DNA of 44,723 nt, from the sequence record NC_073316.1; one strand, written 5' to 3'. Position numbers and translations under genes: made by a program. The DNA is from Escherichia phage vB_EcoS_fFiEco02. This document shows, in pieces, positions 27,725-42,423 of the stretch; the first letter of the stretch is position 1; each line of letters starts with the position of its first letter. A model generated the notes under the pieces. The model did not search any database. It was not told the origin of the DNA and worked only from the letters and a program-made list of their open reading frames with translations.

Positions 27725-27915
27725 CCCTTAACGTAGAGTACCAATTCCTTCCGCCCAAACGCCGTAACGTTACCGGTTACGTCTTCGATAACCAGTTTAC
27801 CGTTCGACTCGACGAACACCGTATCAACGGCAACAGGGCGACGGGTCTTAACGTTGAAAATCATGTCGCCCGGTACGATGTCACGTGCTGGTTTGCGGTC
27901 ATATTCGTGTTTCAT
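27721..27915 (-). CDS. hypothetical small protein
   Basis: 64 aa; overlaps the helicase start. Confidence 0.4.
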   Translation of the reverse strand: MKHEYDRKPARDIVPGDMIFNVKTRRPVAVDTVFVESNGKLVIEDVTGNVTAFGRKELVLYVKG

Positions 27916-27945
27916 TTCTCAATTCCTTATATTGTTGGTGTAGGG

Positions 27946-28230
27946 CTAACTATAATAGTTCGCTATTAGGTCGTCAACCTGTTTGAACGACCCGACGACA
28001 AAAACATTCGCGCCGCGTTTGCGCATACGCTCATGCTCACGTAACTGGTGTGGGTCTGGCTTCGTGTTTTCGTCTTTCTTAACCTCGACGAACCAGACGA
28101 TACCGTTGGGGAGAATTACCAGCAGGTCGGGGGCGCCGGAACGCCCCTCGTAGGAAAGTTTACGAACGAGGCCGCCGATAGCCTCGAATCGCTCTTTTGC
28201 GTATTTCTGGATGCGCCCCTCTTTAGTCAT
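27946..28230 (-). CDS. VRR-NUC domain nuclease
   Basis: PD-(D/E)xK-like GAPDLLVILPNGIVWFVEVKK motif; ATG at 28230 overlaps the upstream stop. Confidence 0.6.
   Translation of the reverse strand: MTKEGRIQKYAKERFEAIGGLVRKLSYEGRSGAPDLLVILPNGIVWFVEVKKDENTKPDPHQLREHERMRKRGANVFVVGSFKQVDDLIANYYS
27949..27977 (-). promoter_or_regulatory. promoter TTGACG-N17-TATAGT with AATAG-N4-CTATT palindrome in the spacer
   Basis: same architecture as the promoters at 31677-31705 and 34295-34324. Confidence 0.5.
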
Positions 28231-28379
28231 GAGCGCAGAACCCAAGTTATAAACGCCCCGCCTAAAATGGCAACACCAACAAACTTAAAGAACAGGCCAT
28301 AACAGAACATCGCGGCTATTCCTGCGCCGAGTAGCAGTGCGAGCATGGTTACTATCGTCCAAAATACAAACATTGTCAT
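28227..28379 (-). CDS. small hydrophobic protein (50 aa, putative)
   Basis: below track cutoff; MTMFVFWTIVTMLALLLGAGIAAMFCYGLFF…; ATGA coupling on both sides. Confidence 0.3.
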   Translation of the reverse strand: MTMFVFWTIVTMLALLLGAGIAAMFCYGLFFKFVGVAILGGAFITWVLRS

Positions 28380-28465
28380 AATACGCACCCCTCACGTTTC
28401 GTATGCTCAATCCCGCAGCGCGGACAGATTCGGCAGTCTTCTTCGTAGAACCAGTAAATTTTCAT
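28376..28465 (-). CDS. micro-ORF with Cys cluster (29 aa, putative)
   Basis: DCRICPRCG…C; ATGA overlaps with both flanking ORFs. Confidence 0.25.
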   Translation of the reverse strand: MKIYWFYEEDCRICPRCGIEHTKREGCVL

Positions 28466-28593
28466 TCCAGCACCCACAGATAAATTGCGATGAACATACC
28501 CAGTACGGCGGTCATCATGTCGTATTGACCCTCGTGGTAGTAGACACCGGCTGCGAATCCCGCCAGTACTGCAATAATCAGTTTACTTGGCAT
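28462..28593 (-). CDS. small hydrophobic protein (43 aa, putative)
   Basis: MPSKLIIAVLAGFAAGVYY…; start overlaps the last codons of the polymerase gene. Confidence 0.3.
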   Translation of the reverse strand: MPSKLIIAVLAGFAAGVYYHEGQYDMMTAVLGMFIAIYLWVLE

Positions 28594-30784
28594 AACGTTT
28601 TAACTCCTGACCTTCCGCTACAAGAGGGAACCCCTCCGCCCACTCTGGCAACGCACACATTAATTTTTCCAGTTCAGCCACCGTGTAATACGGCGTATCT
28701 GGAGTTTCACATACCAGTTCATCGTGTACCGAAAGCACGATGGGATACCCGCCACCCTCAACATTAATCATCGCATATGCGAGTAAATCACGGCACAGCG
28801 CCTGAACAATGTTTTCGCAGGCTTTGCCGCCGTGGGTGTACAGGGTAGTCCATTGGCGGGTTAACTGGTTTTCACCCTGATACTTGATTCGCACATTCGT
28901 GCTTACTCGTCCGTCTTCGTCTGTTTCCTTTGTCACACTAACGCCGATTCCCGGATACGAGAGGATGCGGCCCGACGGCAACTCCATACACAACCACCAA
29001 CCTGGAACCTTCCTACCGGATGAATCAAATTCTACCGTACGCCATATGCGGATAGCCCTTTCCCCATTCCTGCGCAAGTGTGCTCCCGCCCAAAATTCAC
29101 GACCAGGATTTCTTACAGCGGCTAAAATACCGTCTTTGATGTCGCGCCAGAACGCTACTGTTTCCGGGTGTGACTCGCGCCACATACGCTTGATTGCGTC
29201 GCAGGTGCGCCACACTTTCTTGTCCAGAATATACGATGGTCGGTCATCCTTCTCACCTGGATGCGGGGGGCGCTTGGCTTCCTGGATGCGCGCCCATTCA
29301 TATCCTCTCGCGGTGGCTGACCAGATGTGGTCCGGGAATGTACCGTCCATTGTTTTAGCCATCTCAATAAGGTCGAGGCCTAAGTTTTTGGTGAACGTAA
29401 CGAATGCTCCGACGCCTCCCTCGTAGCCGAGGCCCAGTTCACATGCTTTGCCTATCTGTCTGATTTCCTTAAAGTTTTTCTTAATATCGTCGGGGTCCAT
29501 GCCAAACATCTTACCTGCAGTTACGCAATAAATATCTAACCCGGCGCGGAAAGTATCAAGCGCGGTTTCTTCGCCTGCCAACCACGCAAGCCCACGACCC
29601 TCAACGTTAGAGTAATCGGCAACAACAAACTTATGCCCCACTTCCGGTATGATGCAGCTACGTACCGTCGATGCTGTTAGCTTGGCTACATCAAAACGGC
29701 GGTGTGCCCGGCCTTTAAGTAACGCTGAAATGCCTTTACCCAGTTCATCATCGTGATAGTACCCGCGCGCCAGGTTCTGTGGTTGGAAGCCTTTACCCGC
29801 CCACCGCAAAGTGCGTTTTGCCCCACCGTACTGTAAACAACCCCGGCGGCGGTCGTCCGATGAGCGGCCCAACAGCAGTGGGTTATATTTCGTTGACGCG
29901 GTGGACGCGGCCCCGAGGCGCATTTCGATAATTGTGCGTGCGTCGTCCGGTAAATCATCGTCCGCCAGCAGGTCGTTAAGCGTCGACTTCTGTGCGTTGT
30001 GTATGCGGTGTGCAGGGGCGAGTTCACGAAGAATCGGCAGAAAGTCCTTACCAGTAAGCGAGCCGCCGTATTTGCGTTGGGCTTCCTCCTGTAACTGCGC
30101 TTTGTGTTTCTCCACGGCTTCAATAGCGGCTTCCGCCAGTGCAACGTCAACCTTAAACCCGCGGTCGTTGATTAACTGGTCCAGTTCCAGTACACGGTCT
30201 TCGAACTCAGAGTTACCCCAACGCGGCAGCTTATGGAAGACTTCACGCATTGCAGTGATGTCGCTCACGGCGTACTTGATGAACAGCGCCCACTCGTCCG
30301 GGTGTGTTTCTGCGGTGTAGCGGCGGATTTTGTAATTCTTCGGTGTCGGTTTAGAGAAACGCTGAATCAGCGCCTTGCCGCGTTTATCTTTTGCATTGTC
30401 AGCAGACACGCCAAGCACTTCACACAGCGCATCAAGTGAACCCGGCAGCGCGTGACGAAACGCCCAAATCATCGTATCAATGGTGTTGCTTACGGGAATA
30501 TCAAAGCCCCAGCAGTGTTTCATGATGAGCCTGTCGAACATTGAGCCGTTGTGCCACACCATCTTAATACGACTGTTCGGCTTAACCAGGCGGCGCAGTG
30601 CGCGGTGCAAATCACCCGGCATGTCGCTGCCGTCGGTGCAATCCCATACCCGCACAGGCTCGTCGTCAAAAGCATATGTGCAGATAAGCACTTCGGTAGT
30701 CGGGTGTTCGGCGTAAGCGTAGGAGCCGACTTTCTTTAAATCGGCTTCGGAGAATGTTTCAAAGTCCAGGTATAAGTAGCTCAT
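28583..30784 (-). CDS. DNA polymerase I (family A) with 3'-5' exonuclease domain
   Basis: Exo I motif LDFETFS; pol motif A VADYSNVEGR, motif B RQIGKACELGLGYEGG, motif C SVHDELV; start taken at the ATG with SD aaggaaaaag. Confidence 0.9.
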   Translation of the reverse strand: MSYLYLDFETFSEADLKKVGSYAYAEHPTTEVLICTYAFDDEPVRVWDCTDGSDMPGDLHRALRRLVKPNSRIKMVWHNGSMFDRLIMKHCWGFDIPVSNTIDTMIWAFRHALPGSLDALCEVLGVSADNAKDKRGKALIQRFSKPTPKNYKIRRYTAETHPDEWALFIKYAVSDITAMREVFHKLPRWGNSEFEDRVLELDQLINDRGFKVDVALAEAAIEAVEKHKAQLQEEAQRKYGGSLTGKDFLPILRELAPAHRIHNAQKSTLNDLLADDDLPDDARTIIEMRLGAASTASTKYNPLLLGRSSDDRRRGCLQYGGAKRTLRWAGKGFQPQNLARGYYHDDELGKGISALLKGRAHRRFDVAKLTASTVRSCIIPEVGHKFVVADYSNVEGRGLAWLAGEETALDTFRAGLDIYCVTAGKMFGMDPDDIKKNFKEIRQIGKACELGLGYEGGVGAFVTFTKNLGLDLIEMAKTMDGTFPDHIWSATARGYEWARIQEAKRPPHPGEKDDRPSYILDKKVWRTCDAIKRMWRESHPETVAFWRDIKDGILAAVRNPGREFWAGAHLRRNGERAIRIWRTVEFDSSGRKVPGWWLCMELPSGRILSYPGIGVSVTKETDEDGRVSTNVRIKYQGENQLTRQWTTLYTHGGKACENIVQALCRDLLAYAMINVEGGGYPIVLSVHDELVCETPDTPYYTVAELEKLMCALPEWAEGFPLVAEGQELKRYAK

Positions 30785-30936
30785 TTCTTTTTCCTTAAAT
30801 CCAGTGCCTTCGTTTCGCTGAGTCTTATTTTCATACAATCACGGCAAATCCACACATGCCTGTACCCGGCGCGGTACTCATCCGCGTACCACGGAAGCGG
30901 TTTCATATATCGGTATACGTGCTTACAGAAAAACAT
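30781..30936 (-). CDS. small Cys/His-rich protein (51 aa, putative zinc ribbon)
   Basis: below track cutoff; MFFCKHVYRY…HVWICRDCMK; stop overlaps the polymerase ATG (ATGA). Confidence 0.3.
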   Translation of the reverse strand: MFFCKHVYRYMKPLPWYADEYRAGYRHVWICRDCMKIRLSETKALDLRKKK

Positions 30937-30952
30937 TATTTTCGACCCTTAG

Positions 30953-30975
30953 TAAAAAGGCCCAATGAAGGGCCT
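30953..30975 (-). terminator. rho-independent terminator after the 30996-31622 gene
   Basis: - strand hairpin aggccc-ttcatt-gggcct followed by ttttt. Confidence 0.5.
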
Positions 30976-30995
30976 CAGTTAAATTGATTCAGATA

Positions 30996-31622
30996 TTAAC
31001 GGCGGCGACGTTCGCGGCGCGGTGCTTCATCTTCTTCGTCGTCTTCCAGGTCATTGACGCTTGCGGCGACTTTAGAACCACCGAACGCTTTACCTTCACC
31101 GACGTACTTAATCGCCAGCAGGTTAACCCCGAGAACTTTATATTTCTGGCTGAACCAGATTTCGACGCTTACGTTAGCGACACAGCCACTGTAAACCTGT
31201 TCGCCTTCAATCTGTTCGCCGTCTACGTTGAAGTCCTGCTCCACCTGAGTCTCACCTTTTTTAGAGGTTACAATCAGCGGCTGCTTCTGCGCCTTCGCTT
31301 TGAAGTAGAAGCCTTCTGGGAAGTCTTCAAACGGGTTATCACGCTCAGCAATGTCTTTAATCGCGCATTTATCCATGTGCTTACCTTCGCCGTAGTTGGA
31401 CTTCATCCATTTCTCGGCAGCAGCTGCGCCTAACGCTTCTTCAACTACAGCGTAAACAGTGTCGTAGAGTGCATCGATTTGAGCGTGGTCAGGCGGCAGG
31501 ATGATAGTCGCGCTATACTGGCCTTTAGTGATGGAGCCATCATCGTTTTCACGGTCTTTTTCGCGTTCGAATACGTTAACCCATGCAGTGTTTACTTTAC
31601 GCAGATTCAGTTTAATTCCCAT
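30996..31622 (-). CDS. putative ssDNA-binding / annealing protein
   Basis: 208 aa; acidic C-terminal stretch DLEDDEEDE; lies downstream of the recombination exonuclease; own promoter. Confidence 0.4.
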   Translation of the reverse strand: MGIKLNLRKVNTAWVNVFEREKDRENDDGSITKGQYSATIILPPDHAQIDALYDTVYAVVEEALGAAAAEKWMKSNYGEGKHMDKCAIKDIAERDNPFEDFPEGFYFKAKAQKQPLIVTSKKGETQVEQDFNVDGEQIEGEQVYSGCVANVSVEIWFSQKYKVLGVNLLAIKYVGEGKAFGGSKVAASVNDLEDDEEDEAPRRERRRR

Positions 31623-31676
31623 CTTAATTTCTCGCTTTTCAGTTTACTCCTGGAAGCTGCCAGGCCAGTGATTAGA

Positions 31677-31705
31677 ACTATAATAGCTAACTATTCAGGT
31701 GTCAA
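31677..31705 (-). promoter_or_regulatory. promoter TTGACA-N17-TATAGT with AATAG-N4-CTATT palindrome
   Basis: consensus -35 and near-consensus -10; palindrome 31682-31695. Confidence 0.55.
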
Positions 31706-31709
31706 CACT

Positions 31710-32951
31710 TTATTCTAAATCTTCTTCACTAACCCGATTCCACTCAGGACGTTTGTCGTTTGCCGTTGCGACACATGGCGCTCCTGGCTTACGGGTAATG
31801 AAGTCTTTCAGTTCATCTTCCGGTATGACTTTAACAGCTTCGGTTGGCGTCATGAGCACTTGCTTCATTAGCGCTATGCCATACTTGCCAGCAACTTTCT
31901 CCGCGTCTTTCCACGCACGATTACCTGGGCGTCCTTCTACCAGTTTGTACCCCGGCACTTTCTTACCGGAATGCAGCGCGGCAGCCATAGCTTTCTCAAC
32001 CTTGTCGATGTGCTGGCGCAACAACGGCAACTTCTCATACTCAGCTACAAGTTGCTCCGGCGTCAGTTCCAGCGCAAAGTCGTCCTCCAGTTCTTCCGCC
32101 AGTACAGCGTTAACGGTTTTTGTACGCGCGGCGCATTGTTCAGAGAACCGACACCACTGACAACCATCGACCGACGGCTTAAAGTCAGACGCTTTCAGGT
32201 TCTTCTTGCCGCGGGAATAGGCATCGAGCGCTAACAGTGCTCGTTTTTGTGCAAACTTAGCGAACAGTTCAAGGCCTTCAACCGAGATGTCCCACTCCGA
32301 CGCACCGCCAGCGCACGGCTGGAAAATTACCAGACGAACCACGGTGATGTTATAACGCCTCTTGAGTCGGCGATAAACACCGAGAGCGTAAAGCATAAGC
32401 TGCTTGTTTTCTTTCGCTTCGACACGATGCCGTCCTGTTTTCAGGTCGCCGATAATGAGAATATGTTCGTCTGTGTTAGCCAGTTCCTGTACGGCAACAA
32501 GGTCAGCAGTCCCGAACGTCTCAACGCCTTCATACCCCGGATGCAATACCTCAGTAAGATTGACGCGCATTTCCAGCTTAGCGTAAGTCGCTACGTCAAT
32601 AATCGCTTTGCAGTAGTCGGTGTACTTGCGCACCTGCTCAATCATATCCGCCGTAATCAGTACCGCGCCTTTCATCGGGCTGATTAGCGCCCTAATCTGG
32701 CCTTTACCTTCATCCAGCACGTAAGCACCGACTTCACGCTCTAACGGCAACGCAGTACCGCGGATATAGGCGTTGAGATGGGCTTCAGCTATGGTGTGCA
32801 TAGCTGTGCCTAATACCGCAGCTTTACCGGACGTATTAGGAATATCTTTCTCGCAGGCCAGTGATGCGGCGCAGCTTAGCCACTTTTTAGCACCTGACGG
32901 CGACAGTAAGGCGTGCACATCGTTATTACCACCGCGCTCTTTTAGTTTCAT
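31710..32951 (-). CDS. PD-(D/E)xK exonuclease, Cas4/RecB-like with Fe-S cysteines
   Basis: motif IIGDLKTG; N-terminal Cys pair (LSCAASLAC) and C-terminal CQWCRFSEQC cluster typical of Cas4-like phage exonucleases. Confidence 0.75.
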   Translation of the reverse strand: MKLKERGGNNDVHALLSPSGAKKWLSCAASLACEKDIPNTSGKAAVLGTAMHTIAEAHLNAYIRGTALPLEREVGAYVLDEGKGQIRALISPMKGAVLITADMIEQVRKYTDYCKAIIDVATYAKLEMRVNLTEVLHPGYEGVETFGTADLVAVQELANTDEHILIIGDLKTGRHRVEAKENKQLMLYALGVYRRLKRRYNITVVRLVIFQPCAGGASEWDISVEGLELFAKFAQKRALLALDAYSRGKKNLKASDFKPSVDGCQWCRFSEQCAARTKTVNAVLAEELEDDFALELTPEQLVAEYEKLPLLRQHIDKVEKAMAAALHSGKKVPGYKLVEGRPGNRAWKDAEKVAGKYGIALMKQVLMTPTEAVKVIPEDELKDFITRKPGAPCVATANDKRPEWNRVSEEDLE

Positions 32952-32966
32952 CGTATGTATGCCTCG

Positions 32967-33155
32967 TTAATAGACCCGCTCTAGGGTGAACACCGCTCCA
33001 ATGAAAGCCTCCTGCTTAATCATTGCGTTTATTGCGGAATTGGCCTTGCGCTCAGTCAATTCAAGGTCATACCCTGCACATAGATAACTATATGTGCCGT
33101 CTTTGTGTCTTACTTTTATTTTGAATCTTGCTGTTTTCATACCCTGTTCTCCCAC
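32967..33155 (-). CDS. hypothetical small protein
   Basis: 62 aa, in operon. Confidence 0.4.
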   Translation of the reverse strand: MGEQGMKTARFKIKVRHKDGTYSYLCAGYDLELTERKANSAINAMIKQEAFIGAVFTLERVY

Positions 33156-33409
33156 TGGTCAATTAAATGCCGCGTCTTATGGTCGCAGTGCATAGCCCAC
33201 CCATACATCGACTCGAAGACATAAAAGTCTGGCTTGGCGAATGTTGTGCGCTTAATCTGTGACACGTGATGGCCTATATCTTTAGGCCGTGGTACTTTGC
33301 CTAAGTACGCCATCTCTTCCATCTGGTGCGCACCCGACGGCGCGCGCAACAGCCATAGCGACTCTGTGTTGTCTCGCCTGTCTACGGCGCGGTAGAGTTG
33401 GTAAATCAT
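33137..33409 (-). CDS. hypothetical small protein
   Basis: 90 aa, in operon. Confidence 0.4.
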   Translation of the reverse strand: MIYQLYRAVDRRDNTESLWLLRAPSGAHQMEEMAYLGKVPRPKDIGHHVSQIKRTTFAKPDFYVFESMYGWAMHCDHKTRHLIDQWENRV

Positions 33410-33624
33410 TTATCCACCTCATGCATTCTCAAGAAGACAATCATAGCGGCGCGTAGAGGGTTTTCGTGCGTACTTTTGGTGAACGAGGCGGAGTGATACG
33501 CTCTATATGTGAACGTATGCCGGTTAACCGTAACGCATTCAATTGATATGTGATTATCAATTATTATAGGCCATGCGTCCTCCACCCGATTACAATAATC
33601 GACTCCTCCGGAAGCTAATTCCAT
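33406..33624 (-). CDS. hypothetical small protein
   Basis: 72 aa, ATGA overlap downstream. Confidence 0.4.
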   Translation of the reverse strand: MELASGGVDYCNRVEDAWPIIIDNHISIECVTVNRHTFTYRAYHSASFTKSTHENPLRAAMIVFLRMHEVDK

Positions 33625-33750
33625 CTGATGCCCCGCGAAACATTTCCGTATAGCGCGCGGCTGACACGTGCATTGATTCCTATGTCTGTTAAATTTCCGT
33701 AGTTCATAATTCCGACCCTCAGTTAAAGCGGCCCGAAGGCCGCGGGATAG

Positions 33751-34263
33751 TTATTCTTCTTCGAAATACTTGTTCTTGATTGCCGTCAGGCGTTCCAGAT
33801 ACTCCACCAGGTCTTCGTCTTTAATCGCGGCAATCTTCATCTTCTTACCGGTGAACTCTTCCAGCAGTTCATCAGAATCATCACACGCGGCATCGCTCGG
33901 ACCTTCGTTAATGGCGTCGTCGATAGCCTGAATCTGGTCGCGCAGAGACTGGTAATCGACTTCTTCTTCCGGCTCTGGCGTCGGTTCCTCTGCTTTAGCT
34001 TTACGCTGCTTGCGTTTAGGCTTCTCTTCTTCTGCCGGTTTAGTGTCGACGATGTCTTCACCTTCGACTGGGAGTTCTTTCGCCTTCTCGACTTCTTCAA
34101 GTGCTTTAGCCAGTTCTTTTTTAACTGTCTCTACCCCCGTTACTGCGACGTCAACAGTCAATTCACCTACCGACTTACCAGTCGGTTGTCTCGCACTGTT
34201 CGCAGCAATCAGTTCATGTGCAACTACGAAACGTTCCAGTAATACTAAGAATTTCTCTAACAT
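33751..34263 (-). CDS. hypothetical acidic protein
   Basis: 170 aa; highly acidic with a central Lys/Pro/Glu-rich linker; own promoter. Confidence 0.45.
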   Translation of the reverse strand: MLEKFLVLLERFVVAHELIAANSARQPTGKSVGELTVDVAVTGVETVKKELAKALEEVEKAKELPVEGEDIVDTKPAEEEKPKRKQRKAKAEEPTPEPEEEVDYQSLRDQIQAIDDAINEGPSDAACDDSDELLEEFTGKKMKIAAIKDEDLVEYLERLTAIKNKYFEEE

Positions 34264-34294
34264 TTGTTTCTCTCCTCTCGTTTGGTATGGGCTA

Positions 34295-34324
34295 ACTATA
34301 ATAGTGAACTATTCACGTTGTCAA
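34295..34324 (-). promoter_or_regulatory. promoter TTGACA-N18-TATAGT with GAATAG-N4-CTATTC palindrome
   Basis: divergent from the XRE gene promoter; palindrome 34300-34314. Confidence 0.55.
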
Positions 34325-34334
34325 TGGGCTTTTC

Positions 34335-34357
34335 TAAAATAATTAATATGGTACTAT
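34335..34357 (+). promoter_or_regulatory. extended -10 promoter (TGgTACTAT) for the XRE regulator gene
   Basis: TACTATTCAC as in the early promoters; weak -35; SD aaggag 9 nt before the ATG. Confidence 0.5.
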
Positions 34358-34388
34358 TCACATATCAACTGACTAAGGAGTAATTGAC

Positions 34389-34604
34389 ATGCAACCATCT
34401 GAACTAGGCATACGTGTAGAACAACGCCGTAAAGAACTCGGCATCTCTCAGCGCCGTCTGGCTGTCCTGGCCGGCGTTTCCCAGGGCGCGATTAACCAGC
34501 TGGCACTCGGCGTAACTCAGGACGTCCGCCCGGCAACGCTGTTTAAACTGGCGGAAGTGCTGGAAGTAGACGCCAAGTGGCTGGCGTTCGGTGAAGGGGC
34601 TTAA
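34389..34604 (+). CDS. XRE-family (Cro/CI-type) HTH transcriptional regulator
   Basis: 71 aa; HTH signature ELGISQRRLAVLAGVSQGAINQLALG; opposite orientation to flanking replication genes. Confidence 0.75.
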   Translation: MQPSELGIRVEQRRKELGISQRRLAVLAGVSQGAINQLALGVTQDVRPATLFKLAEVLEVDAKWLAFGEGA

Positions 34605-34619
34605 CGCCCCTTTCTTTTT
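34595..34619 (+). terminator. rho-independent terminator after the XRE gene
   Basis: hairpin aggggc-ttaac-gcccct + ttcttttt. Confidence 0.55.
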
Positions 34620-34621
34620 AC

Positions 34622-36889
34622 CTATTCCAAATCTTCCTCTGTCGCTACCAGCATTTCATTCGGTTCGTATATTGTCTTCGGAATCTTGTTATCCGTTATC
34701 CTGGTGTTCAGCCTGTAACGGCCGGGTATTATCTGATTGTTTTCGTCAGTACCCGGAACAAGATACCCGGCCTCAACCATTTTCTTAATCTTCCCGCGTT
34801 CTATAGCTTCTTTGGAGTTAAACGCCTTTGCGTTGGGGTCGGACTGTGCCAGCTTATTCGCTGCGGCTACTGTGATACCTTCGTTTCCGTTGTAGGTTCC
34901 TTCCGCCAGTTCAAACGCTGCCAGTATCGTGGCTTCTGAGCTGTTGACGGCGTTCTCTACGGTTTTACGTACGTTTTCTTTACCTTCCTTAGTCAGCCCT
35001 TCTTCCCGCTCTTTCTCCTCGTCAGTTTTGAACGGCTCGAAACCCCACGGCATTAACACAAGCGCTTTGTGCGGCTCCGGCAGGTCCAGGTTTACGATTG
35101 TGCCGTATTCCTCTGTGTTACCCAGGAACTCAACCGCACGGTATTCTTTCGGCGGCGGCGCTTCACGGAACTGTACAGACTCCAGCACCATACCAACCGT
35201 CTTCTGTTGAGGTCCGTGCTTAAATTTAGAGTGGTATACATTTATCTGACGGTCGGTTGCGCGTTCAATTGTCAGTTCCACATCGACGCCTGCGTACAGC
35301 GCGCCACTGCCACGGGCTTTCTTTCCACCCTTCGGGGTATGGTGGACGACGCCTACCGCGGCTTTAGTTGTGTCGCGTACTTCTTTCATGATTGCGATAA
35401 CTTTACCCATACCGATTGCCGTTGATGAACTGTTCTCGTCGAACTTATCGATCGTCAGGGCCAGCGTCTGGTTGAGGGTGTCAAACGCAACCATGCCAAT
35501 AGGTTCATCCCCCGCAGTTTCACGCATCAACTTAATCAGGTTTTTCAGTTTGCCGACTTCACCCACGTCGATGACATGTACATAATCTTTACCTTCTTCG
35601 CCGTATTTAGCCGCAAGGGCATCGATACGTGTACGTGTAGCCGCACCACCTTCACCATCAATATAGAAGTGATGGCAACGCTGGGTATCCGCCCCGGCAA
35701 ACCGGTATCCGGAGGCACTCAGGTACATCATACCCAGTGTATAGAACGATTTATACGTGCCGGATTCCCCGACAATATCCCAGATGCAATCCGACGGCAT
35801 GTACCCTTCAACGACGAAATCAGCCTTTACCGGTTCCGGTAGCTCATCCTCTTCTGAGTCCTCGTCGCCCTCCAGGTCGTCCAGGCTGCATGAAACTGAT
35901 TCACGCGCACCCCAACCGATAGCCTCAGCCACTTTACTGAACGGCAGCCCGGTCGCATCACACACATACTTCCACACCTCTTTTGGTGGCATGCCTTCGG
36001 TTGCCGTAATGTCGGTGTCGTGAATCATGGTTACGTTAGGTGCTTCGTACCCCTCGCGCGGGAAGCACAGCAGGAAGTCATCCGGCCGCGGCGTCGGGTC
36101 GCTGTAGTTCTCTGCGTGTTCCGGCGTAGCTGGCATTTTCAGGCCGCGCGGCGTCATGATACCGCCGTACTCAAACGCCAGTGCTTCAAACGCATCAGTA
36201 AACGCGGTGCGCAGTTCTTCCGGTATCTGGTAATCCGATGCGCTGCTCACCTCGTAATCCGGTATGCCTTCCAGTAACTCATCCGGGTCAATCAGGTCGT
36301 TGCGGCGCGACCAGATAACAGTAGAGCCAACCGGCGGCAGGTACATCGGCTGAGACAGAGTGAACCCGCTGCGGTCCGCGCCCATACCTTTGAAGAAGTG
36401 CTCCAGCAATCCATGACGGACGCGGACGATGTCACCACCTTCAACCGGACGAGCCAGCGGCATGACAACACGAAAGCGCGGCGACTCATCAATATGTGAC
36501 GCCGTGGTATAGAGGCACATGGCTTTACGGCTGCGCTTAACCCGGTGCACCGCTTCCTGGTACTCTTCCGGCGTTGCACTGTCGAAGTCCAGATACGCCA
36601 GCGACGATTTGCTTACAGACGCGTCACAGCGATAAAAGAAGCCTTTACGGGCCTGCTTAAAGTCACCTGTTTCCGGGTCTTTTACGGTGCTGTGTATAGA
36701 ATCGCACGCGGCAGTGATATAACCTGGCGCGGTCTTAGGGTTAATCCCGTCGCGAACAGCATCAAGCGGCTGAATTAACTCTTTCAGGTCATCCAGTGTT
36801 GCCGTATGTGTGGTTCTGACGTTTATATCCTTTTTCTCCGCCCGCGCGTTGCGACGGGACCACGAGTAGGATAAAATTACATCGGACAT
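34622..36889 (-). CDS. primase-helicase (N-terminal primase-like domain, C-terminal RecA/DnaB-like P-loop domain)
   Basis: 755 aa; Walker A GESGTYKS, Walker B-like VAFDTLN; SD aaggaaa. Confidence 0.8.
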   Translation of the reverse strand: MSDVILSYSWSRRNARAEKKDINVRTTHTATLDDLKELIQPLDAVRDGINPKTAPGYITAACDSIHSTVKDPETGDFKQARKGFFYRCDASVSKSSLAYLDFDSATPEEYQEAVHRVKRSRKAMCLYTTASHIDESPRFRVVMPLARPVEGGDIVRVRHGLLEHFFKGMGADRSGFTLSQPMYLPPVGSTVIWSRRNDLIDPDELLEGIPDYEVSSASDYQIPEELRTAFTDAFEALAFEYGGIMTPRGLKMPATPEHAENYSDPTPRPDDFLLCFPREGYEAPNVTMIHDTDITATEGMPPKEVWKYVCDATGLPFSKVAEAIGWGARESVSCSLDDLEGDEDSEEDELPEPVKADFVVEGYMPSDCIWDIVGESGTYKSFYTLGMMYLSASGYRFAGADTQRCHHFYIDGEGGAATRTRIDALAAKYGEEGKDYVHVIDVGEVGKLKNLIKLMRETAGDEPIGMVAFDTLNQTLALTIDKFDENSSSTAIGMGKVIAIMKEVRDTTKAAVGVVHHTPKGGKKARGSGALYAGVDVELTIERATDRQINVYHSKFKHGPQQKTVGMVLESVQFREAPPPKEYRAVEFLGNTEEYGTIVNLDLPEPHKALVLMPWGFEPFKTDEEKEREEGLTKEGKENVRKTVENAVNSSEATILAAFELAEGTYNGNEGITVAAANKLAQSDPNAKAFNSKEAIERGKIKKMVEAGYLVPGTDENNQIIPGRYRLNTRITDNKIPKTIYEPNEMLVATEEDLE

Positions 36890-36947
36890 GTTGTATTTCC
36901 TTCAGCAAGTAATTTAGCCTCGGCGTTCACCGCGTCGGGGCTTTCTT

Positions 36948-37238
36948 TTATCTTTTAGCCAGACATTCCATCAAATGCTCGTACTTACGGTAATAATCTA
37001 CGACAATCTCATCACCGAAATACTGATACACGTACGCTAAGTGGTCAGAGACATCGATGGAAGCCGACATTGCGCTGAGGCTTCTTAGACTAATCAACTG
37101 CAATTCTTCTGTAACGCAAAACGGCGAATATGAGTCCAGTTTACAGGAAACGTTAAAACACAACGCGTATTCACCTTGCACTAAATAAACCATATAAGCA
37201 TTGTCGTTCTCTTTATCGTGGAAAATTACACCTTTCAT
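36948..37238 (-). CDS. hypothetical protein
   Basis: 96 aa, second gene of the leftward operon. Confidence 0.45.
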   Translation of the reverse strand: MKGVIFHDKENDNAYMVYLVQGEYALCFNVSCKLDSYSPFCVTEELQLISLRSLSAMSASIDVSDHLAYVYQYFGDEIVVDYYRKYEHLMECLAKR

Positions 37239-37417
37239 TTCACGTTCTCCTTAATCCACGCTTCAACTTTATTGCGGTCAAATGTCCCTGGTAAACGGCG
37301 GCCCATAACCTTAATACAGCAATCCGGGAATTTGCCACTGCGCAACCAGTTATTAATTGTCTGACGTGTCACCCCGATACGTTCAGCTACTTCATTCTGG
37401 GTCATGTAACGCTGCAT
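37235..37417 (-). CDS. small HTH DNA-binding protein (AlpA/excisionase-like fold)
   Basis: MTQNEVAERIGVTRQTINNWLRSGKFP; ATG at 37417 with SD aggaga; first gene of the leftward operon. Confidence 0.55.
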   Translation of the reverse strand: MQRYMTQNEVAERIGVTRQTINNWLRSGKFPDCCIKVMGRRLPGTFDRNKVEAWIKENVK

Positions 37418-37448
37418 TTTTATATCTCCTGTTTGTTTAGTGGAACCG

Positions 37449-37477
37449 AGTATAGGATAGCGGGAATGTAAAAGCAA
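37449..37477 (-). promoter_or_regulatory. promoter TTGCTT-N17-TATACT for the leftward replication operon
   Basis: hexamers at correct spacing about 30 nt upstream of the HTH gene start. Confidence 0.45.
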
Positions 37478-37524
37478 CCAAAACTGAACACAAAGTTACT
37501 AAGATGCAAAAGATGCTACTGGTA

Positions 37525-37553
37525 TTGACTTTTACTTAAAAATATGCTAAGCT
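37525..37553 (+). promoter_or_regulatory. promoter TTGACT-N17-TAAGCT of structured RNA B
   Basis: paralog of 5687-5715. Confidence 0.5.
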
Positions 37554-37559
37554 TCACTG

Positions 37560-37794
37560 AGCTTGTGAGATATCGCAAGCGACCGCGGAGCGGCAGGGAA
37601 CGCAACGCGTGCCATTAGGCACTTGAGTGTAGTTCCGCTGGCGCTTTCGGAAGGGCCAAAGTCTATTGTTAATCCCGCCTAAATACCCAAGTCACTGATA
37701 ATTAAAAGTTTATATAGTTGCCGTAAGCAAGGTAGAGAGTACTTCACTCCGCTGGGGTGGGCTAACGCCCACCCACTGCGTTGCGTACTCTTTT
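37560..37794 (+). ncRNA. structured RNA element B (paralog of 5722-5918)
   Basis: conserved core; stems GCTTG/CAAGC, CAG-GGAAC/GTTCC-g-CTG, GTGCC-ATTA-GGCAC; ends in a long hairpin + tctttt. Confidence 0.5.
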
Positions 37795-37833
37795 AAGAAA
37801 CGAAAGAATCACAACGGCAACGTAACTATTTTC

Positions 37834-37862
37834 TTGCACACCCCAACATAATAGGATACTAT
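37834..37862 (+). promoter_or_regulatory. early promoter TTGCAC-N17-TACTAT with AATAG-N4-CTATTC palindrome
   Basis: consensus-like hexamers; conserved leader …ATCGAAACGAGA… shared with 39344 and 42424 promoters. Confidence 0.6.
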
Positions 37863-37896
37863 TCACTTATCGAAACGAGACAGATGAGTGAGGGTT

Positions 37897-38085
37897 ATGT
37901 TTAGGAAGGGTCAGTTGGTTAAAGCCGTAGATTATTATTATAGTATTGTTGAAACAGAGTCTGTCGTTTTTCCCGGAACTTATAGGGTGCGTTTTCTCGT
38001 GAAAAGATTAGGTGCGGTAGATTGGTTCCGGGAAGACGAGCTAACACTCATCGGCAACAATTTTAAATTCAAAGGGGCGAAGTGA
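37897..38085 (+). CDS. hypothetical early protein
   Basis: 62 aa from the ATG at 37897. Confidence 0.4.
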   Translation: MFRKGQLVKAVDYYYSIVETESVVFPGTYRVRFLVKRLGAVDWFREDELTLIGNNFKFKGAK

Positions 38086-38321
38086 TGCAAATCATAATTA
38101 CAGATAACACCGTTACCTGTGAAACGGCTAACGATACTCTGGAGAGCATAGGCGTAAATATCGGTGATGTTTTCGATGTACTGGATTCCTGTAACGGTGG
38201 CTGGTGGATTAAGACGGGAAGATACACAATCCCGGTAACTAAGGCCGAAGCGCAAATATACACAACGGCATCGAATCATGATGCTCGCGCCGACGACTCT
38301 GAGGGAGGTTGCCGTAAATGA
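38085..38321 (+). CDS. hypothetical early protein (paralog family with 38654-38845)
   Basis: shared segment IGVNIGDVFDVLDS vs FGVAVGDVFEVVEA. Confidence 0.45.
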   Translation: MQIIITDNTVTCETANDTLESIGVNIGDVFDVLDSCNGGWWIKTGRYTIPVTKAEAQIYTTASNHDARADDSEGGCRK

Positions 38322-38593
38322 ATAACACTGAACTGAAAACAGTAGCGGAATATAACCATAAAATACGTGTCATGCGTCGGGGTGCCGGGCTGGAGCAGTT
38401 TTATAACATGCGGCGCACTGCGACGCGCGACCCCGAGTTTCCGCGAACAGGTTATTATTTCACTGAAGGCATTATTCCGATTCGTGCCCGCAAGGATTAC
38501 GGTTGGGTGCGCGAGACACCTAATCTTATGTGGTGCTGGTATTGTGGTGAGTTCTGGGTGCACGTTAAAGAGAAGATGGTGGGTTATGAATAA
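38318..38593 (+). CDS. hypothetical early protein
   Basis: 91 aa, ATGA-type overlap with the upstream gene. Confidence 0.4.
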   Translation: MNNTELKTVAEYNHKIRVMRRGAGLEQFYNMRRTATRDPEFPRTGYYFTEGIIPIRARKDYGWVRETPNLMWCWYCGEFWVHVKEKMVGYE

Positions 38594-38653
38594 TTACCCG
38601 TTTATTTTAATCGTCAGCGCCGTTTATGAGGCGCACGCGTTGTGGGGGCTGGT

Positions 38654-38845
38654 ATGAGAATTCGAATAACAAAGGTAAACAGTTTTCAACCCGCACCCTA
38701 TGACGACCATCCGCTCTACCATTTCGGCGTGGCTGTCGGTGATGTGTTCGAGGTTGTGGAAGCGCATGGGTACGGGTTTATAGTCGAAACTGATGATGGA
38801 CCGCTATTCATTAGACGCAGTGAGTGCGAAGTTCTGGAGGACTAA
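38654..38845 (+). CDS. hypothetical early protein
   Basis: 63 aa from the ATG at 38654. Confidence 0.4.
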   Translation: MRIRITKVNSFQPAPYDDHPLYHFGVAVGDVFEVVEAHGYGFIVETDDGPLFIRRSECEVLED

Positions 38846-38848
38846 TTT

Positions 38849-38992
38849 ATGAGAGAAGCATTTGAACGGTGGGCCGTCGTCGAGGGTCTGCCGGTTAACA
38901 AGGGTTCAAAGAAAGAGTACCTGAACGTTAAGACGCGTCTCGCGTGGCGGGCGTGGAAAGCTGGTGTGTTGTCTGTTGTGAATCCGAGGTGA
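38849..38992 (+). CDS. hypothetical small protein (47 aa)
   Basis: below track cutoff; tightly packed between neighbours. Confidence 0.3.
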   Translation: MREAFERWAVVEGLPVNKGSKKEYLNVKTRLAWRAWKAGVLSVVNPR

Positions 38993-38995
38993 GAT

Positions 38996-39187
38996 ATGGG
39001 TAAGTGGATTAAGTGTAGTGAGCGGATGCCGGAAAAGCTTGATGATGTGCTGGTTACTGATGGCGAGCATGTCGAGGTTAAATGGTGGAACGGTCGTATT
39101 TGGGATTGTTGGGCACCGCGTAACTCAGATATTAGTTACAAAGATGTAACTCACTGGATGCCGTTACCCGAGCCGCCGGAAGTGTGA
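38996..39187 (+). CDS. small protein resembling DUF551-type phage proteins
   Basis: C-terminal THWMPLPEPPEV, Trp-rich. Confidence 0.4.
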   Translation: MGKWIKCSERMPEKLDDVLVTDGEHVEVKWWNGRIWDCWAPRNSDISYKDVTHWMPLPEPPEV

Positions 39188-39229
39188 TGTTATATTGTAA
39201 CAATAGTTTGGGATTTTACTGAGTGACTT

Positions 39230-39258
39230 ACGCTGCTACACCGCAGCGTATCATTTTT
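39230..39258 (+). terminator. rho-independent terminator
   Basis: hairpin acgctgc-tacacc-gcagcgt + atcattttt. Confidence 0.55.
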
Positions 39259-39343
39259 CTCATTTTTGTTCTATTTCACCAAACGCAACAATCGAAGCGA
39301 CTATTGCAGGAGATGCAACGATACAAACACCAATAAAATTTAC

Positions 39344-39372
39344 TTGCACACTGGGATAGAATAGGCTACTAT
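39344..39372 (+). promoter_or_regulatory. early promoter TTGCAC-N17-TACTAT with GAATAG-N4-CTATTC palindrome
   Basis: palindrome 39359-39374; leader contains ACGAGAGGAGAG. Confidence 0.6.
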
Positions 39373-39403
39373 TCATTTACACGAACGAGAGGAGAGACGG
39401 AAT

Positions 39404-39592
39404 ATGAGTAACAAAAACGAGCATTTGATTAAAGTTACCCCAGTATGGTCGGCGTGGGTTATTGCCTCTGATGGGGAGCACGTACCAAAATTCGTGTTCA
39501 CTGATGAGAAAGTTGCGCGTGAGTGGCTTCGCGCCGGCAAGAAAGGTGAACGCGGCATCATGAAGGTTGGGCTTGTAGGAGACGTATTATGA
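39404..39592 (+). CDS. hypothetical early protein
   Basis: 62 aa; starts MSNKNE with the same 17 nt as the next gene. Confidence 0.45.
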   Translation: MSNKNEHLIKVTPVWSAWVIASDGEHVPKFVFTDEKVAREWLRAGKKGERGIMKVGLVGDVL

Positions 39593-40239
39593 GTAACAAA
39601 AACGAAGTATTCGAGTACCTGATTGACCAGTTACGGCGGCAGCTACCGGTCGTAGATGTTATGGGTGAGATTGAACGGTGGAGTATCGACCGTAGTATCG
39701 CGGGTCGCGGTAACTATACCGACGAGGAAAACGCCATAATCGATGCTTACATCGGCCTGGAGCACAACCCGTACAAGCAACAGTGCGAAGGCCTGGCCCA
39801 TGAAGTGCTGTCACTTAAGAATCAGTTACGTGATGCGTCGGCGCTGGTGGCTGAGTTACAGAAAGAACTTGATATCGCCAATAGCACCGTCGTTCGTTTG
39901 CGTAAAGAGATAGCTAAGTCTACCGGTGACATTGGAGAATACATCGATGCCATGGAGCAATCCGGTTGCTGCAAAGAAGATACTCAGTACAACGCCTGGA
40001 GGCCGCATTATGGTGCGCGACAACCTGTGCCGGATGGGACTATGGTATTTATCCGGTATCGCAACGGGGAGGAGCCGAAACACAGTGTAGCAGCAGAAAA
40101 GCGGTCGTGGATTTGGGATGGAACATACGCAGACATAGTGGAATACAAGATTGACACACAGGAATGTGAACATGACTATCGTTTGGTTCTGTGGTGTAAC
40201 GACTTACAGCAGTGCTCTAAATGCGGGGTGATCAAATGA
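39589..40239 (+). CDS. hypothetical early protein (coiled-coil N-terminal, Cys/Trp-rich C-terminal)
   Basis: 216 aa; ATGA overlap with the upstream gene. Confidence 0.5.
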   Translation: MSNKNEVFEYLIDQLRRQLPVVDVMGEIERWSIDRSIAGRGNYTDEENAIIDAYIGLEHNPYKQQCEGLAHEVLSLKNQLRDASALVAELQKELDIANSTVVRLRKEIAKSTGDIGEYIDAMEQSGCCKEDTQYNAWRPHYGARQPVPDGTMVFIRYRNGEEPKHSVAAEKRSWIWDGTYADIVEYKIDTQECEHDYRLVLWCNDLQQCSKCGVIK

Positions 40240-40499
40240 CCAGCATCTTATTTATCTGGGTATTGTCCGCAGGCCAGATGCAACTAGCGGCATCAGAAAC
40301 GTTTTATTCGATGGAGGCGTGCCAGTCAGCGGCACGCGCCGCAGAGAACGCGCACTTTCTGTTTCAGGGTGACAAGCCCAACGACTCAGAGGTACGCGCC
40401 GCAGAGAACGCGCACTTTCTGTTTCAGGGTGACAAGCCCAACGACTCAGAGGTACGCGCTATCTGCTCGCCTAAGCGACTTGGTAAACAGGAGAAGTGA
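40236..40499 (+). CDS. small protein with N-terminal hydrophobic segment and internal 20-aa tandem duplication
   Basis: MTSILFIWVLSAGQMQLAAS…; AAENAHFLFQGDKPNDSEVR repeated twice. Confidence 0.45.
   Translation: MTSILFIWVLSAGQMQLAASETFYSMEACQSAARAAENAHFLFQGDKPNDSEVRAAENAHFLFQGDKPNDSEVRAICSPKRLGKQEK
40334..40453 (+). repeat. perfect 60-bp tandem duplication (2 copies, plus 7-bp partial third)
   Basis: acgcgccgcagagaacgcgcactttctgtttcagggtgacaagcccaacgactcagaggt repeated head-to-tail. Confidence 0.9.
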
Positions 40500-40501
40500 T
40501 T

Positions 40502-40705
40502 ATGGTACAGAGATACTCTAAGTATGGGTCTGACAACCATTTCGGGGACCGTCACGGGGCGTGGGTTAAGTTTGAGGACTACCAGAATCTTGACCACAAG
40601 CTGTTGGAAGTTGAAGCCGAGTTACAGAAATACAAAGACCAGTTCCCTGATTACGTAGAGTGCGCGAACTGTGGGTCAGTTACACATTTGGAAGGGGTGG
40701 AGTGA
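40502..40705 (+). CDS. hypothetical early protein (MVQRY paralog 1)
   Basis: 68 aa; SD aggaga. Confidence 0.45.
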   Translation: MVQRYSKYGSDNHFGDRHGAWVKFEDYQNLDHKLLEVEAELQKYKDQFPDYVECANCGSVTHLEGVE

Positions 40706-40899
40706 TGGTACAGAGGTATGAGGTGGAAAAATGGGGCCTGCCAGAGCCTGAGATGGCTGAGTACGCATACGGCGATTATGTAGAATACGACGCTTATCTT
40801 AAACTGGAAGCAAAGTTACGTGAATTCGCTGAACAGGTAATGTACGAACCTTGTTCGAAAGTTACAGAAGAAATGGCCCGCGAGATTCTCGGAATATGA
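40705..40899 (+). CDS. hypothetical early protein (MVQRY paralog 2)
   Basis: 64 aa; same N-terminus MVQRY and similar helical YxxYLKLE pattern. Confidence 0.45.
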   Translation: MVQRYEVEKWGLPEPEMAEYAYGDYVEYDAYLKLEAKLREFAEQVMYEPCSKVTEEMAREILGI

Positions 40900-41189
40900 G
40901 CCTTGCAACTGACATCCTGAAACGAAGCGGCCTTGCGCCGCTGTCGCCGAGAGCGAATACACGAATACACAAGCGCCGCCGTAACGCGCTGTTCCCTGAG
41001 ATACAAGAACGGCGCAAAGCCATCCGCGCCTGCGGATTCCAGAGCGGGAAGGCCGTTAATCTAGGCGAGTTTAAGACGAAGGAACGCGCAGCAATCGCTA
41101 ATCGGTTATTTAATTACTGGAAATCGCTGGGATATGATGATATTCCGACGAAACCGCAGAGACGACAATACATCTGGAGACATAAATAA
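40896..41189 (+). CDS. hypothetical basic protein
   Basis: 97 aa from the ATG at 40896 (ATGA overlap); Arg/Lys-rich. Confidence 0.4.
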   Translation: MSLATDILKRSGLAPLSPRANTRIHKRRRNALFPEIQERRKAIRACGFQSGKAVNLGEFKTKERAAIANRLFNYWKSLGYDDIPTKPQRRQYIWRHK

Positions 41190-41219
41190 ACCGTTATTAA
41201 GATAATTCCTACCCGTGGT

Positions 41220-41259
41220 ATCCTCCAGTTACTGCATACTTAATACGCACCTGGAGGAT
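41220..41259 (+). promoter_or_regulatory. stem-loop sequestering the holin ribosome-binding site
   Basis: 9-bp stem atcctccag/ctggaggat; SD ggagga lies in the 3' arm, 6 nt upstream of the TTG start. Confidence 0.4.
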
Positions 41260-41264
41260 TCATC

Positions 41265-41573
41265 TTGGATAAATTTACCGAAACAGTGACGGGGTGGCTT
41301 CTCGCTGCCGCACTAGCCGGAGGGGTAATTGGACTACGACAGCATAAGTCCGTTATTTCTGACCCTATCGACGGCTTCTGCTTTATCGCAACTGGCTTCA
41401 CTTGCGCCGTGTTTGGCGCACCTCTTGCCGCCCAATGGTTTGGCATTACCGGTGAGCGTGAGATAGCTGGCCTCGGATTCATCATTGCCATTCTCTGGAT
41501 ACCCATCTATTCCCGCCTATCCGGTATCGTCGCCGGAGAATACATCGCACGTCGAGGAGGCACAGATGAATGA
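41265..41573 (+). CDS. holin (putative, three transmembrane segments, TTG start)
   Basis: 102 aa with three hydrophobic segments; no in-frame ATG/Met; immediately upstream of second membrane protein and endolysin. Confidence 0.5.
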   Translation: MDKFTETVTGWLLAAALAGGVIGLRQHKSVISDPIDGFCFIATGFTCAVFGAPLAAQWFGITGEREIAGLGFIIAILWIPIYSRLSGIVAGEYIARRGGTDE

Positions 41574-42304: not shown

Positions 42305-42370
42305 CACCTGAGACTAATCCGACGATACTTAAATCACCTCCTGTTCCATCCCTCTGCTCTCCAGTTTTAT

Positions 42371-42401: not shown

Positions 42402-42423
42402 ATCTATTTTCTGCAATGACTAG

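Follow-up and report, generated by a model that had tools for sequence, protein, structure and literature searches.

The genome of Escherichia phage vB_EcoS_fFiEco02 (NC_073316.1; 44,723 nucleotides, all of which were analyzed and are called the window below) carries a short inverted repeat, AATAG-N4-CTATT, at many of its promoters, which raises the question of whether these palindromes are operators and, if so, which protein binds them. A first-pass annotation of the DNA had listed the palindrome at eight promoters and had proposed a regulon under a single repressor, pointing to a copy near the gene of a small helix-turn-helix (HTH) protein of the XRE type (34389-34604, hereafter XRE). We consider it likely, from sequence patterns, that the palindromes are operators of a phage-encoded dimeric regulator. 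To the full statement, in which XRE would be the binder and repression the effect, we assign a probability of about 0.6. The window is a complete or near-complete genome (44.7 kb) of a Kagunavirus (Guernseyvirinae), a virulent siphovirus, and Kagunaviruses are treated as virulent in published descriptions (PMC9825357, PMC7203180). Its 10-kb stretch at 30000-40000 is 97.7% identical to Escherichia phage vB_EcoS_fPoEco01 (hereafter fPoEco01), in which no integrase, cI, or RNA polymerase is annotated. The same stretch has 457 related records, chiefly Salmonella Jerseyviruses and E. coli Kagunaviruses, and XRE as the sole query gave 561 matching phage records.

The palindrome is a real feature of this genome. 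Its exact 16-bp form, KAATAG-N4-CTATTM, occurs seven times, against a mean of 0.01 in 100 dinucleotide-preserving shuffles, which is the comparison with a shuffled background that the first-pass annotation had suggested. When up to one mismatch is allowed, the core 14-mer is found at 12 sites across the whole window (1.15 expected). A/T-rich sequence, which had been named as a possible trivial cause, does not by itself account for these numbers: with a first-order Markov background built from A/T-rich intergenic DNA only, fPoEco01, which was also used for coding/intergenic placement, has six exact sites against 0.0045 expected and 10 sites with up to one mismatch against 0.26. Moreover, in a census of all palindromes composed of a 5-mer, a gap, and the reverse complement, AATAG-N4-CTATT ranks first with its seven copies, while the runners-up, with three copies, are terminator stems. 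As for their location, the copies in the window are all intergenic or at a gene end, in a fixed register with σ70 hexamers. Placement in fPoEco01 is similar, with nine of 11 sites in the 6.7% of the genome that is intergenic (93.3% is coding) and the remaining two at gene ends; two-mismatch matches there fall mostly within coding sequence and look like noise. All eight sites originally listed are present (seven exact copies and a degenerate one at 34345-34358), and the promoter intervals given for them agree with the hexamer coordinates that we derived, except that one promoter lies at 15562-15590(-) rather than 15561-15589. To these can be added four one-mismatch copies, all intergenic, at 2776, 5682, 19578, and 42419 (Table 1).

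Orienting each site by its downstream gene separates the promoters into two classes. In the TACTAT class (TTGCAC-17-TACTAT), represented by 5591(-), 15561(-), 37850(+), 39360(+), and the promoter of XRE itself at 34345(+), the dyad extends from approximately -19 to -6 and covers the -10 hexamer. In the TATAGT class (TTGACA-17/18-TATAGT), represented by 27954(-), 31682(-), and 34300(-), it extends from approximately -25 to -12 and fills the spacer, its last T being the first base of the -10. The hexamer coordinates thus bear out the placement that had been described, over the -10 in one class and in the spacer beside it in the other. The two classes have only the palindrome in common, in registers 6 bp apart. 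An independent scan for the σ70 consensus returned the three TATAGT promoters as the best three in 25000-44723 (11, 11, and 10 of 12 positions), while TACTAT-class promoters, which match at only seven of 12, were unlisted. Since promoters as close to consensus as 11/12 need no activator, a site inside them points to repression. One such 11/12 promoter, 34295-34324(-), serves the gene at 33751-34263 and the downstream nuclease operon. More generally, a copy is present at almost all early and middle promoters; operator-bearing units include replication, recombination, immunity, and small early-gene operons, and the promoters without a full site are that of the HTH_17-primase operon and two of the form TTGACT-17-TAAGCT.

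Table 1. Palindrome copies and candidate regulator genes in the window (strand is that of the promoter or gene)
Positions	Strand	Feature	Exact 16-mer	Promoter context	Genes served or nearby
2776-2789		One-mismatch palindrome TATAGTATGCTATT		Just 3' of terminator 2756-2771	Before head-morphogenesis gene
5591-5604	-	Perfect palindrome	5590-5605	Over -10; leftward TTGCGC(5615-5620)-17-TACTAT(5592-5597)	Gene 5043-5564
5682-5695	+	One-mismatch palindrome AATAGTTGACTTTT		Over -35 TTGACT 5687-5692; rightward	Before structured-RNA-like element and spanin gene
15561-15574	-	Perfect palindrome	15560-15575	Over -10; leftward TTGCAC(15585-15590)-17-TACTAT(15562-15567)	15207-15533 and metallophosphoesterase operon
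19578-19591	-	One-mismatch palindrome AATAGCATGCTACT (minus strand)		Weak promoter TTGCCA-17-TAGCAT	Upstream of inserted T5orf172/MUG113 gene 18807-19553(-)
27954-27967	-	Perfect palindrome, overlapping last codons of VRR-NUC open reading frame	27953-27968	Spacer; leftward TTGACG(27972-27977)-17-TATAGT(27949-27954)	27721-27915 and SNF2 helicase
31682-31695	-	Perfect palindrome	31681-31696	Spacer; leftward TTGACA(31700-31705)-17-TATAGT(31677-31682)	Single-stranded DNA-binding protein and DNA polymerase operon
34300-34313	-	Perfect palindrome AATAGTGAACTATT	34299-34314	Spacer; leftward, -35 TTGACA 34319-34324, -10 TATAGT 34295-34300	
34345-34358	+	One-mismatch palindrome AATATGGTACTATT		Over -10 TACTAT 34352-34357	XRE
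34389-34604	+	XRE/HTH_3 protein, 71 residues		Monocistronic, followed by intrinsic terminator 34593-34613	
37238-37417	-	HTH_17 (excisionase/MerR-like) protein, 60 residues, HTH_17 domain only			
37850-37863	+	Perfect palindrome	37849-37864	Over -10; rightward TTGCAC(37834-37839)-17-TACTAT(37857-37862)	Small genes 37888-38845
39360-39373	+	Perfect 16-bp palindrome GAATAGGCTACTATTC	39359-39374	Over -10; rightward TTGCAC(39344-39349)-17-TACTAT(39367-39372)	39404 onward
42419-42432	+	One-mismatch palindrome ACTAGTTGACTATT		Centered on -35 TTGACT 42424-42429; rightward, -10 TATATT 42447-42452 (10/12)	3' of endolysin gene

Comparison with related phages reveals the kind of conservation that a protein-binding site leaves. 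Using the XRE start codon as an anchor that is independent of the motif, we compared the upstream 150 nt from 36 Kagunavirus sources, which correspond to 33 distinct sequences. In all 33, both half-sites and the -35 and -10 of the leftward promoter are invariant, and what varies around them is only the central N4 and the 4-5 nt that separate the dyad from the -35; one of the differences is a 1-nt indel. The imperfect copy at 34345-34358 is likewise identical in 32 of the 33. A second anchoring, on the first 60 codons of two downstream genes in Kagunavirus and Jerseyvirus, gave the same picture for 40 distinct orthologous upstream regions each: the promoter of the single-stranded DNA-binding protein gene has a perfect dyad in 37 and one mismatch in the other three, and the helicase-operon promoter (27954) has a perfect dyad in 31. 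Since the half-sites stay invariant while the center drifts (28 different N4 sequences at Kagunavirus sites), this pattern is best read as an operator footprint. The weaker copies are also found elsewhere, that at 5682-5695 in the complete Kagunavirus genome ST20, and that at 42419 both in ST20 and, with the mismatch in the opposite half-site, in Jerseyvirus SETP7.

The motif has clear phylogenetic limits. In loci fetched around XRE homologs, the dyad ranks top or joint top in 34/34 from Kagunavirus and 11/12 from Jerseyvirus (it is second in the twelfth, L042), and there are no copies in the four Cornellvirus loci or in any of the more distant XRE-bearing phages. Cornellvirus SP-031 instead has an AT-rich dyad, TATTA-N6-TAATA, at nine sites with up to one mismatch (0.94 expected), which sits on the TAATAT -10 of syntenic promoters and has weaker symmetry, being partly a direct repeat. 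Only at the outermost base do operators differ in step with XRE type: it is T in 30/30 Jerseyvirus half-sites and either G (38) or T (46) in most of 96 Kagunavirus half-sites, a difference confounded by phylogeny. One side observation concerns the DNA beyond the leftward promoter. At approximately 34240-34275, and at orthologous positions in the Kagunavirus loci L004-L037, there is a mosaic junction directly 3' of the conserved promoter and ribosome-binding site, so that the first gene after this promoter/operator cassette is of at least four unrelated kinds among Kagunaviruses.

As for the protein that binds these sites, the best candidate for a single repressor is XRE. It matches the Pfam family HTH_3 (PF01381) with an E-value of 2.3e-12 and 47 bits (cutoff 23), and its best solved relative by sequence is 434 Cro (E-value 5.4e-7, residues 6-68), which also has 71 residues. 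A single-sequence AlphaFold2 model of XRE (mean predicted local distance difference test score 84) has helices at 5-17, 21-28, 32-39, 48-57, and 62-66. When this model was used as a query in Foldseek, the top match was 2cro, followed by the N-terminal domain of the 434 repressor, and 434 Cro chains had template modeling scores of 0.73-0.79 with 38-41% identity. With one five-helix domain and no C-terminal peptidase or oligomerization domain, XRE fits the 434 Cro subgroup. The operators that would be assigned to it, 14-16 bp dyads over the -10, the spacer, or the -35 of 8-12 promoters, are of the type expected for this subgroup. It is, moreover, the only HTH protein found in every motif-bearing genome, and its distant relatives adjoin palindromes of the same 5-N4-5 geometry, TAAAG-N4-CTTTA or TGTAG-N4-CTACA. 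In two of these loci (L054 and L055), two copies 46 bp apart lie directly upstream of the gene for the XRE relative; in the window, the spacing is 45 bp.

The arrangement around the XRE gene partly supports the autoregulated repressor that had been envisaged for this locus. XRE and the leftward gene 33751-34263, in which no Pfam domain was found, are divergent, and the DNA between them does hold a palindrome, in fact one perfect and one degenerate copy. What does not conform to the classic arrangement is that there is no cI partner, tripartite operator, or lysogeny module, and that it is the copy on XRE's own promoter that is degenerate (its 16-mer is TAATATGGTACTATTC). The mismatch in that copy creates TGg, i.e., an extended -10, in a promoter that lacks a good -35. 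A lambdoid immunity region is therefore not what the locus resembles, with two separated sites rather than three adjacent ones and neither cI nor integrase annotated in the close relative.

Several points weigh against assigning the sites to XRE and against repression as the only effect. In lambdoid phages the sites of OR are tightly packed, whereas 45 bp separate the two that flank the XRE promoter region here. Kagunavirus and Jerseyvirus XRE proteins are only 52% identical, yet the core motif is unchanged. Their recognition helices read QGAINQ and QSLITH, respectively, and the latter is nearer to that of Cornellvirus (QSAISH), although the core motif is common to Kagunavirus and Jerseyvirus only. 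In these sequences, the recognition helix of XRE therefore does not track the core motif, and the association between motif and XRE type is confounded by phylogeny. Covariation of helix and operator, which we considered as support for XRE, is thus not clean and is suggestive only. Because TACTAT-class promoters are far from consensus, the regulator may have some positive role there. In addition, the only RNA sequencing (RNA-seq) time course, of Kagunavirus K1B4 (PMC12645636), is too poorly synchronized to time the regulon or to separate the promoter classes: sampling ran from 5 to 120 min, phage reads were at most 8.9%, and the "late" class includes DNA polymerase. As it stands, the single-repressor regulon that had been proposed holds up as far as the operators are concerned, through enrichment, register, footprint, and occurrence in a second genus, while XRE is the best candidate rather than an established binder.

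The mismatch between helix and motif is equally compatible with retained specificity and with an alternative binder, and a real if minority possibility is that the palindromes are true operators for a host transcription factor, or for an unrecognized small phage protein common to Kagunavirus and Jerseyvirus, in which case the role of XRE would be local or unrelated. In all motif-bearing genomes there are indeed several small proteins whose function is unknown, among them the product of 27721-27915, which is 92-98% identical and absent from Cornellvirus, and there is a weak NinH-like HTH at 43705-43971. However, these small proteins have no recognizable dimeric sequence-specific DNA-binding domain, 27721-27915 appears by eye to be strand-rich with no helix-turn-helix motif, and conservation of the NinH-like protein is higher in Cornellvirus (71%) than in Jerseyvirus (62%). 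When 30 small early proteins were searched against Pfam for other DNA-binding domains, the NinH-like match, below threshold, was the only one returned. A host factor is less natural than a phage protein since Jerseyvirus and Cornellvirus both infect Salmonella but do not share the motif, and we know of no E. coli or Salmonella regulator with an AATAG-N4-CTATT consensus. The geometry of the sites, by contrast, suits the 434 Cro family. A more specific phage candidate is the HTH_17 early protein. It is 82% identical between Kagunavirus and Jerseyvirus with no match in Cornellvirus, which parallels the distribution of the motif; its operon promoter (TTGCTT-17-TATACT, approximately 37440-37475) has no palindrome, which we counted in its favor; and the four genes expressed earliest in the RNA-seq of K1B4 (PMC12645636) include an HTH gene. 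Nevertheless, ST20 has no HTH_17 by tblastn or phmmer, while it retains XRE (98.6% identity) and six perfect and three one-mismatch sites at orthologous promoters, and two metagenomic loci (L023 and L030) have undergone the same module replacement and kept their palindromes. The HTH_17 recognition helix also varies within Kagunavirus (TRQTINNW, TRRTLNNW, and SPMTLNRW) while the motif is constant. HTH_17 family members typically bind direct repeats. Nor does the system match MerR-type activators, since the palindrome-promoter spacers are 17-18 bp rather than 19-20 bp and the protein, of 60 residues, has the HTH_17 domain only, whereas MerR-type regulators also have a coiled-coil dimerization domain. 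We therefore regard HTH_17 as a very improbable binder, effectively excluded by genomes that have the sites without the protein. The replacement itself, upstream of the primase gene, exchanges HTH_17 and a 96-residue protein for a 47-residue zinc-ribbon-like protein and a 149-residue protein without a Pfam match (6954-7539 in ST20, i.e., L080; 12559-13144 in L030; 3627-4209 in L023; compare 36948-37417 in the window).

Two other explanations dispense with a dedicated repressor altogether. The symmetry could follow from promoter architecture and from duplication of promoter cassettes, -10-like hexamers being present on both strands with no dedicated binder. TATAGT-class sites do have a perfect TATAAT on the opposite strand (34297-34302, 31679-31684, and 27951-27956, all on the plus strand), TATATT is found on the plus strand at 5591 and at 15561, the match at 15551-15579(+) being promoter-like, and the sequence shared by TACTAT-class promoters runs well past the palindrome (TTGCACACCCCAAYAT), as would be expected of duplicated cassettes. 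Yet the spacer half-site of the TATAGT class (34309-34313 and equivalents) overlaps no hexamer on either strand and is still invariant, while the adjoining spacer bases and the N4 vary; promoter architecture therefore leaves the dyad unexplained. A spacer need not be mirror-symmetric for RNA polymerase, the weaker copies over the -35 keep the same dyad, and the palindrome is, as noted above, all that the two classes share despite their different registers. We accordingly find this explanation decidedly unlikely. The opposite-strand hexamers may nonetheless make these promoters bidirectional, in which case the one at 34297-34302 could be a second XRE promoter; the match at 15551-15579(+) reads GTTACA-17-TATATT and faces the tail-assembly genes. 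The remaining explanation makes the motif a promoter used by an RNA polymerase or σ factor that the phage encodes, as its PHIRE label in the literature would have it. Seven "phage RNA polymerase promoters" with the consensus tgAATAGTa-ccTATTat-T were listed for Kagunavirus fBC-Eco01 (PMC9825357) and seven PHIRE promoters for Kagunavirus Golestan (PMC7203180), neither paper noting symmetry or a repressor. However, all open reading frames longer than 300 residues are accounted for (terminase, portal, head, tail, tape measure, tailspike, helicase, DNA polymerase, nuclease, primase, and phosphoesterase), leaving none for an RNA polymerase, and all sites are embedded in properly spaced σ70 hexamers (17-18 bp). 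The extended consensus, tGAATAG-N4-CTATTATAKT, points toward the gene in the TATAGT class but in the TACTAT class points away from it. Opposite-strand hexamers and an extended consensus in both orientations would explain why PHIRE detected the element, but not why it is a dyad. With a small unrecognized σ-like factor being formally possible, a dedicated polymerase or σ factor is, in our opinion, scarcely credible.

If the palindromes are operators of XRE, the mechanism that we infer would run as follows. At the start of infection no repressor would be present, and host σ70 RNA polymerase would fire all operator-bearing promoters, which drive the replication, recombination, immunity, and small early-gene operons. 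XRE, made from its own weak extended -10 promoter, would accumulate and then occupy its 14-16 bp sites over the -10, in the spacer touching the -10, or, at two weaker sites, over the -35. Occlusion of the polymerase would then turn down early and middle transcription units, and XRE, acting through the imperfect site on its promoter, would restrain its own production only once its concentration was higher. Overall, this would amount to a Cro-like lytic shut-off without a lysogeny module. Such a system is probably of an ordinary kind: dispersed operators under one Cro-type repressor, here in a virulent phage.

Known systems help to place this proposal. Operators of phage 434 are 14-bp dyads (ACAA-N6-TTGT) with conserved outer bases and a free center. 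Phage 434 Cro, a single-domain five-helix HTH protein of 71 residues and the best match to XRE in sequence and fold, resembles the system proposed here in its 14-bp dyad (5-N4-5 in the window), in operators overlapping core promoter elements, and in the proposed role of turning down early transcription in lytic growth. Unlike 434, this phage has no cI partner, tripartite OR/OL, or lysogeny genes, and it has one operator per promoter, scattered over 8-12 promoters across the 44.7-kb genome; the half-site is AATAG rather than ACAA, and XRE is a proposed binder. Dispersed operators are themselves familiar. In P1 (C1), mycobacteriophage L5 (gp71 and its stoperators), and Streptomyces phage phiC31, one repressor acts on many copies of a short site, dispersed over the genome at or near the promoters of separate transcription units. 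These repressors maintain lysogeny in temperate phages, whereas the phage here is virulent, and the sites of P1 and L5 are asymmetric, unlike those in the window and the inverted repeats of phiC31. The C-proteins of restriction-modification systems (C.AhdI, C.BclI, and C.Esp1396I) are small XRE-fold dimers that are structural matches to the XRE model, and they autoregulate from dyad operators overlapping their own promoter, as we propose for XRE. They differ in acting at one promoter with a dual operator as an activation-then-repression switch, and there are no restriction-modification genes beside XRE. Finally, the PHIRE "phage-specific promoters" of fBC-Eco01 and Golestan are the same sequence element, with the same seven per genome, read without dyad or operator and assigned to a phage RNA polymerase that these genomes do not encode.

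What is new relative to the literature is therefore the operator/repressor interpretation, the sequence element itself having been listed already (PMC9825357, PMC7203180); our literature search (Guernseyvirinae, Jerseyvirus, and MB78) found no description of an operator or repressor regulon. Few phages are isolated more often than Kagunaviruses and Jerseyviruses for use against E. coli and Salmonella in therapy or biocontrol, and hundreds of their genomes have been deposited. In these genomes, one gene is annotated as "transcriptional repressor DicA/CI," which raises questions of lifestyle and safety, while seven "phage promoters" are credited to a polymerase that is not encoded. If the palindromes are the operator set of a Cro-like lytic regulator, both annotations would be corrected and an early/middle regulon would be defined, together with the few promoters that escape it. 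The pair would also be a compact orthogonal repressor and operator that could serve in engineering these phages and that comes with a natural, graded series of operator variants. Biologically, the circuit is of an expected kind, and the gain is one of clarification rather than surprise.

Two of the promoters without a full site lead to a further pair of elements. At 5687-5915 and 37525-37775 lies a pair of structured-RNA-like paralogs, each ~120 nt long, that share 79% identity over ~145 nt; each is directly downstream of a TTGACTTTT...TAAGCT promoter. The first copy is followed by a terminator (5896-5915) and the spanin gene, and after the second come a hairpin and the 37834 promoter. Scanning the window, these elements included, against Rfam and for tRNAs gave no match, while variants in other Kagunaviruses have compensatory stem changes, with 25 pairs in RNAalifold, four of them with double changes. 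One possibility is that they are promoter-proximal cis-acting leaders or put-like antiterminators. A broader three-part reading, which we think unlikely as a whole, would have Guernseyvirinae run a lambda-like lytic circuit stripped of lysogeny. In it, one Cro-type repressor with dispersed operators would shut essentially all early and middle promoters; late expression would come from the two operator-poor promoters, each followed by one of the previously undescribed structured RNAs (5716-5835 and 37554-37670) as a put-like cis-antiterminator; and conserved promoter/operator cassettes of 40-60 bp would have a second function as joints for homologous recombination, by which gene modules are exchanged between Kagunavirus and Jerseyvirus. 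That the cassettes act as recombination joints may be entertained separately, and would, if true, explain how operators remain identical across genera while the repressor drifts to 52%.

Some smaller observations concern the sites themselves. The gene at 18807-19553(-), which encodes a 248-residue protein with T5orf172/MUG113/CapR domains, is missing from the five other complete genomes compared, and it carries its own weak promoter (approximately 19584-19612) containing a one-mismatch palindrome. At 5673-5688 is a perfect 16-bp "everted" palindrome, AACTATTCGAATAGTT, in which the same half-sites face outward with zero gap; the one-mismatch site at 5682-5695 and the -35 at 5687-5692 adjoin it. 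A two-mismatch relic, AATAGTTTGGGATT, lies at 39202-39215 just upstream of a terminator (39229-39250), and several other Kagunaviruses have a perfect palindrome, cAATAGGTTACTATTt, at the equivalent position, with no flanking promoter hexamers by eye in flanks that were left unscanned. Lastly, the segment between the -35 and the palindrome is conserved as ACCCCAAYAT in three of four TACTAT-class promoters (5605-5614, 15575-15584, and 37840-37849), while the corresponding TATAGT-class segment is variable, and its Jerseyvirus counterpart is the related form AACCAAACAT.

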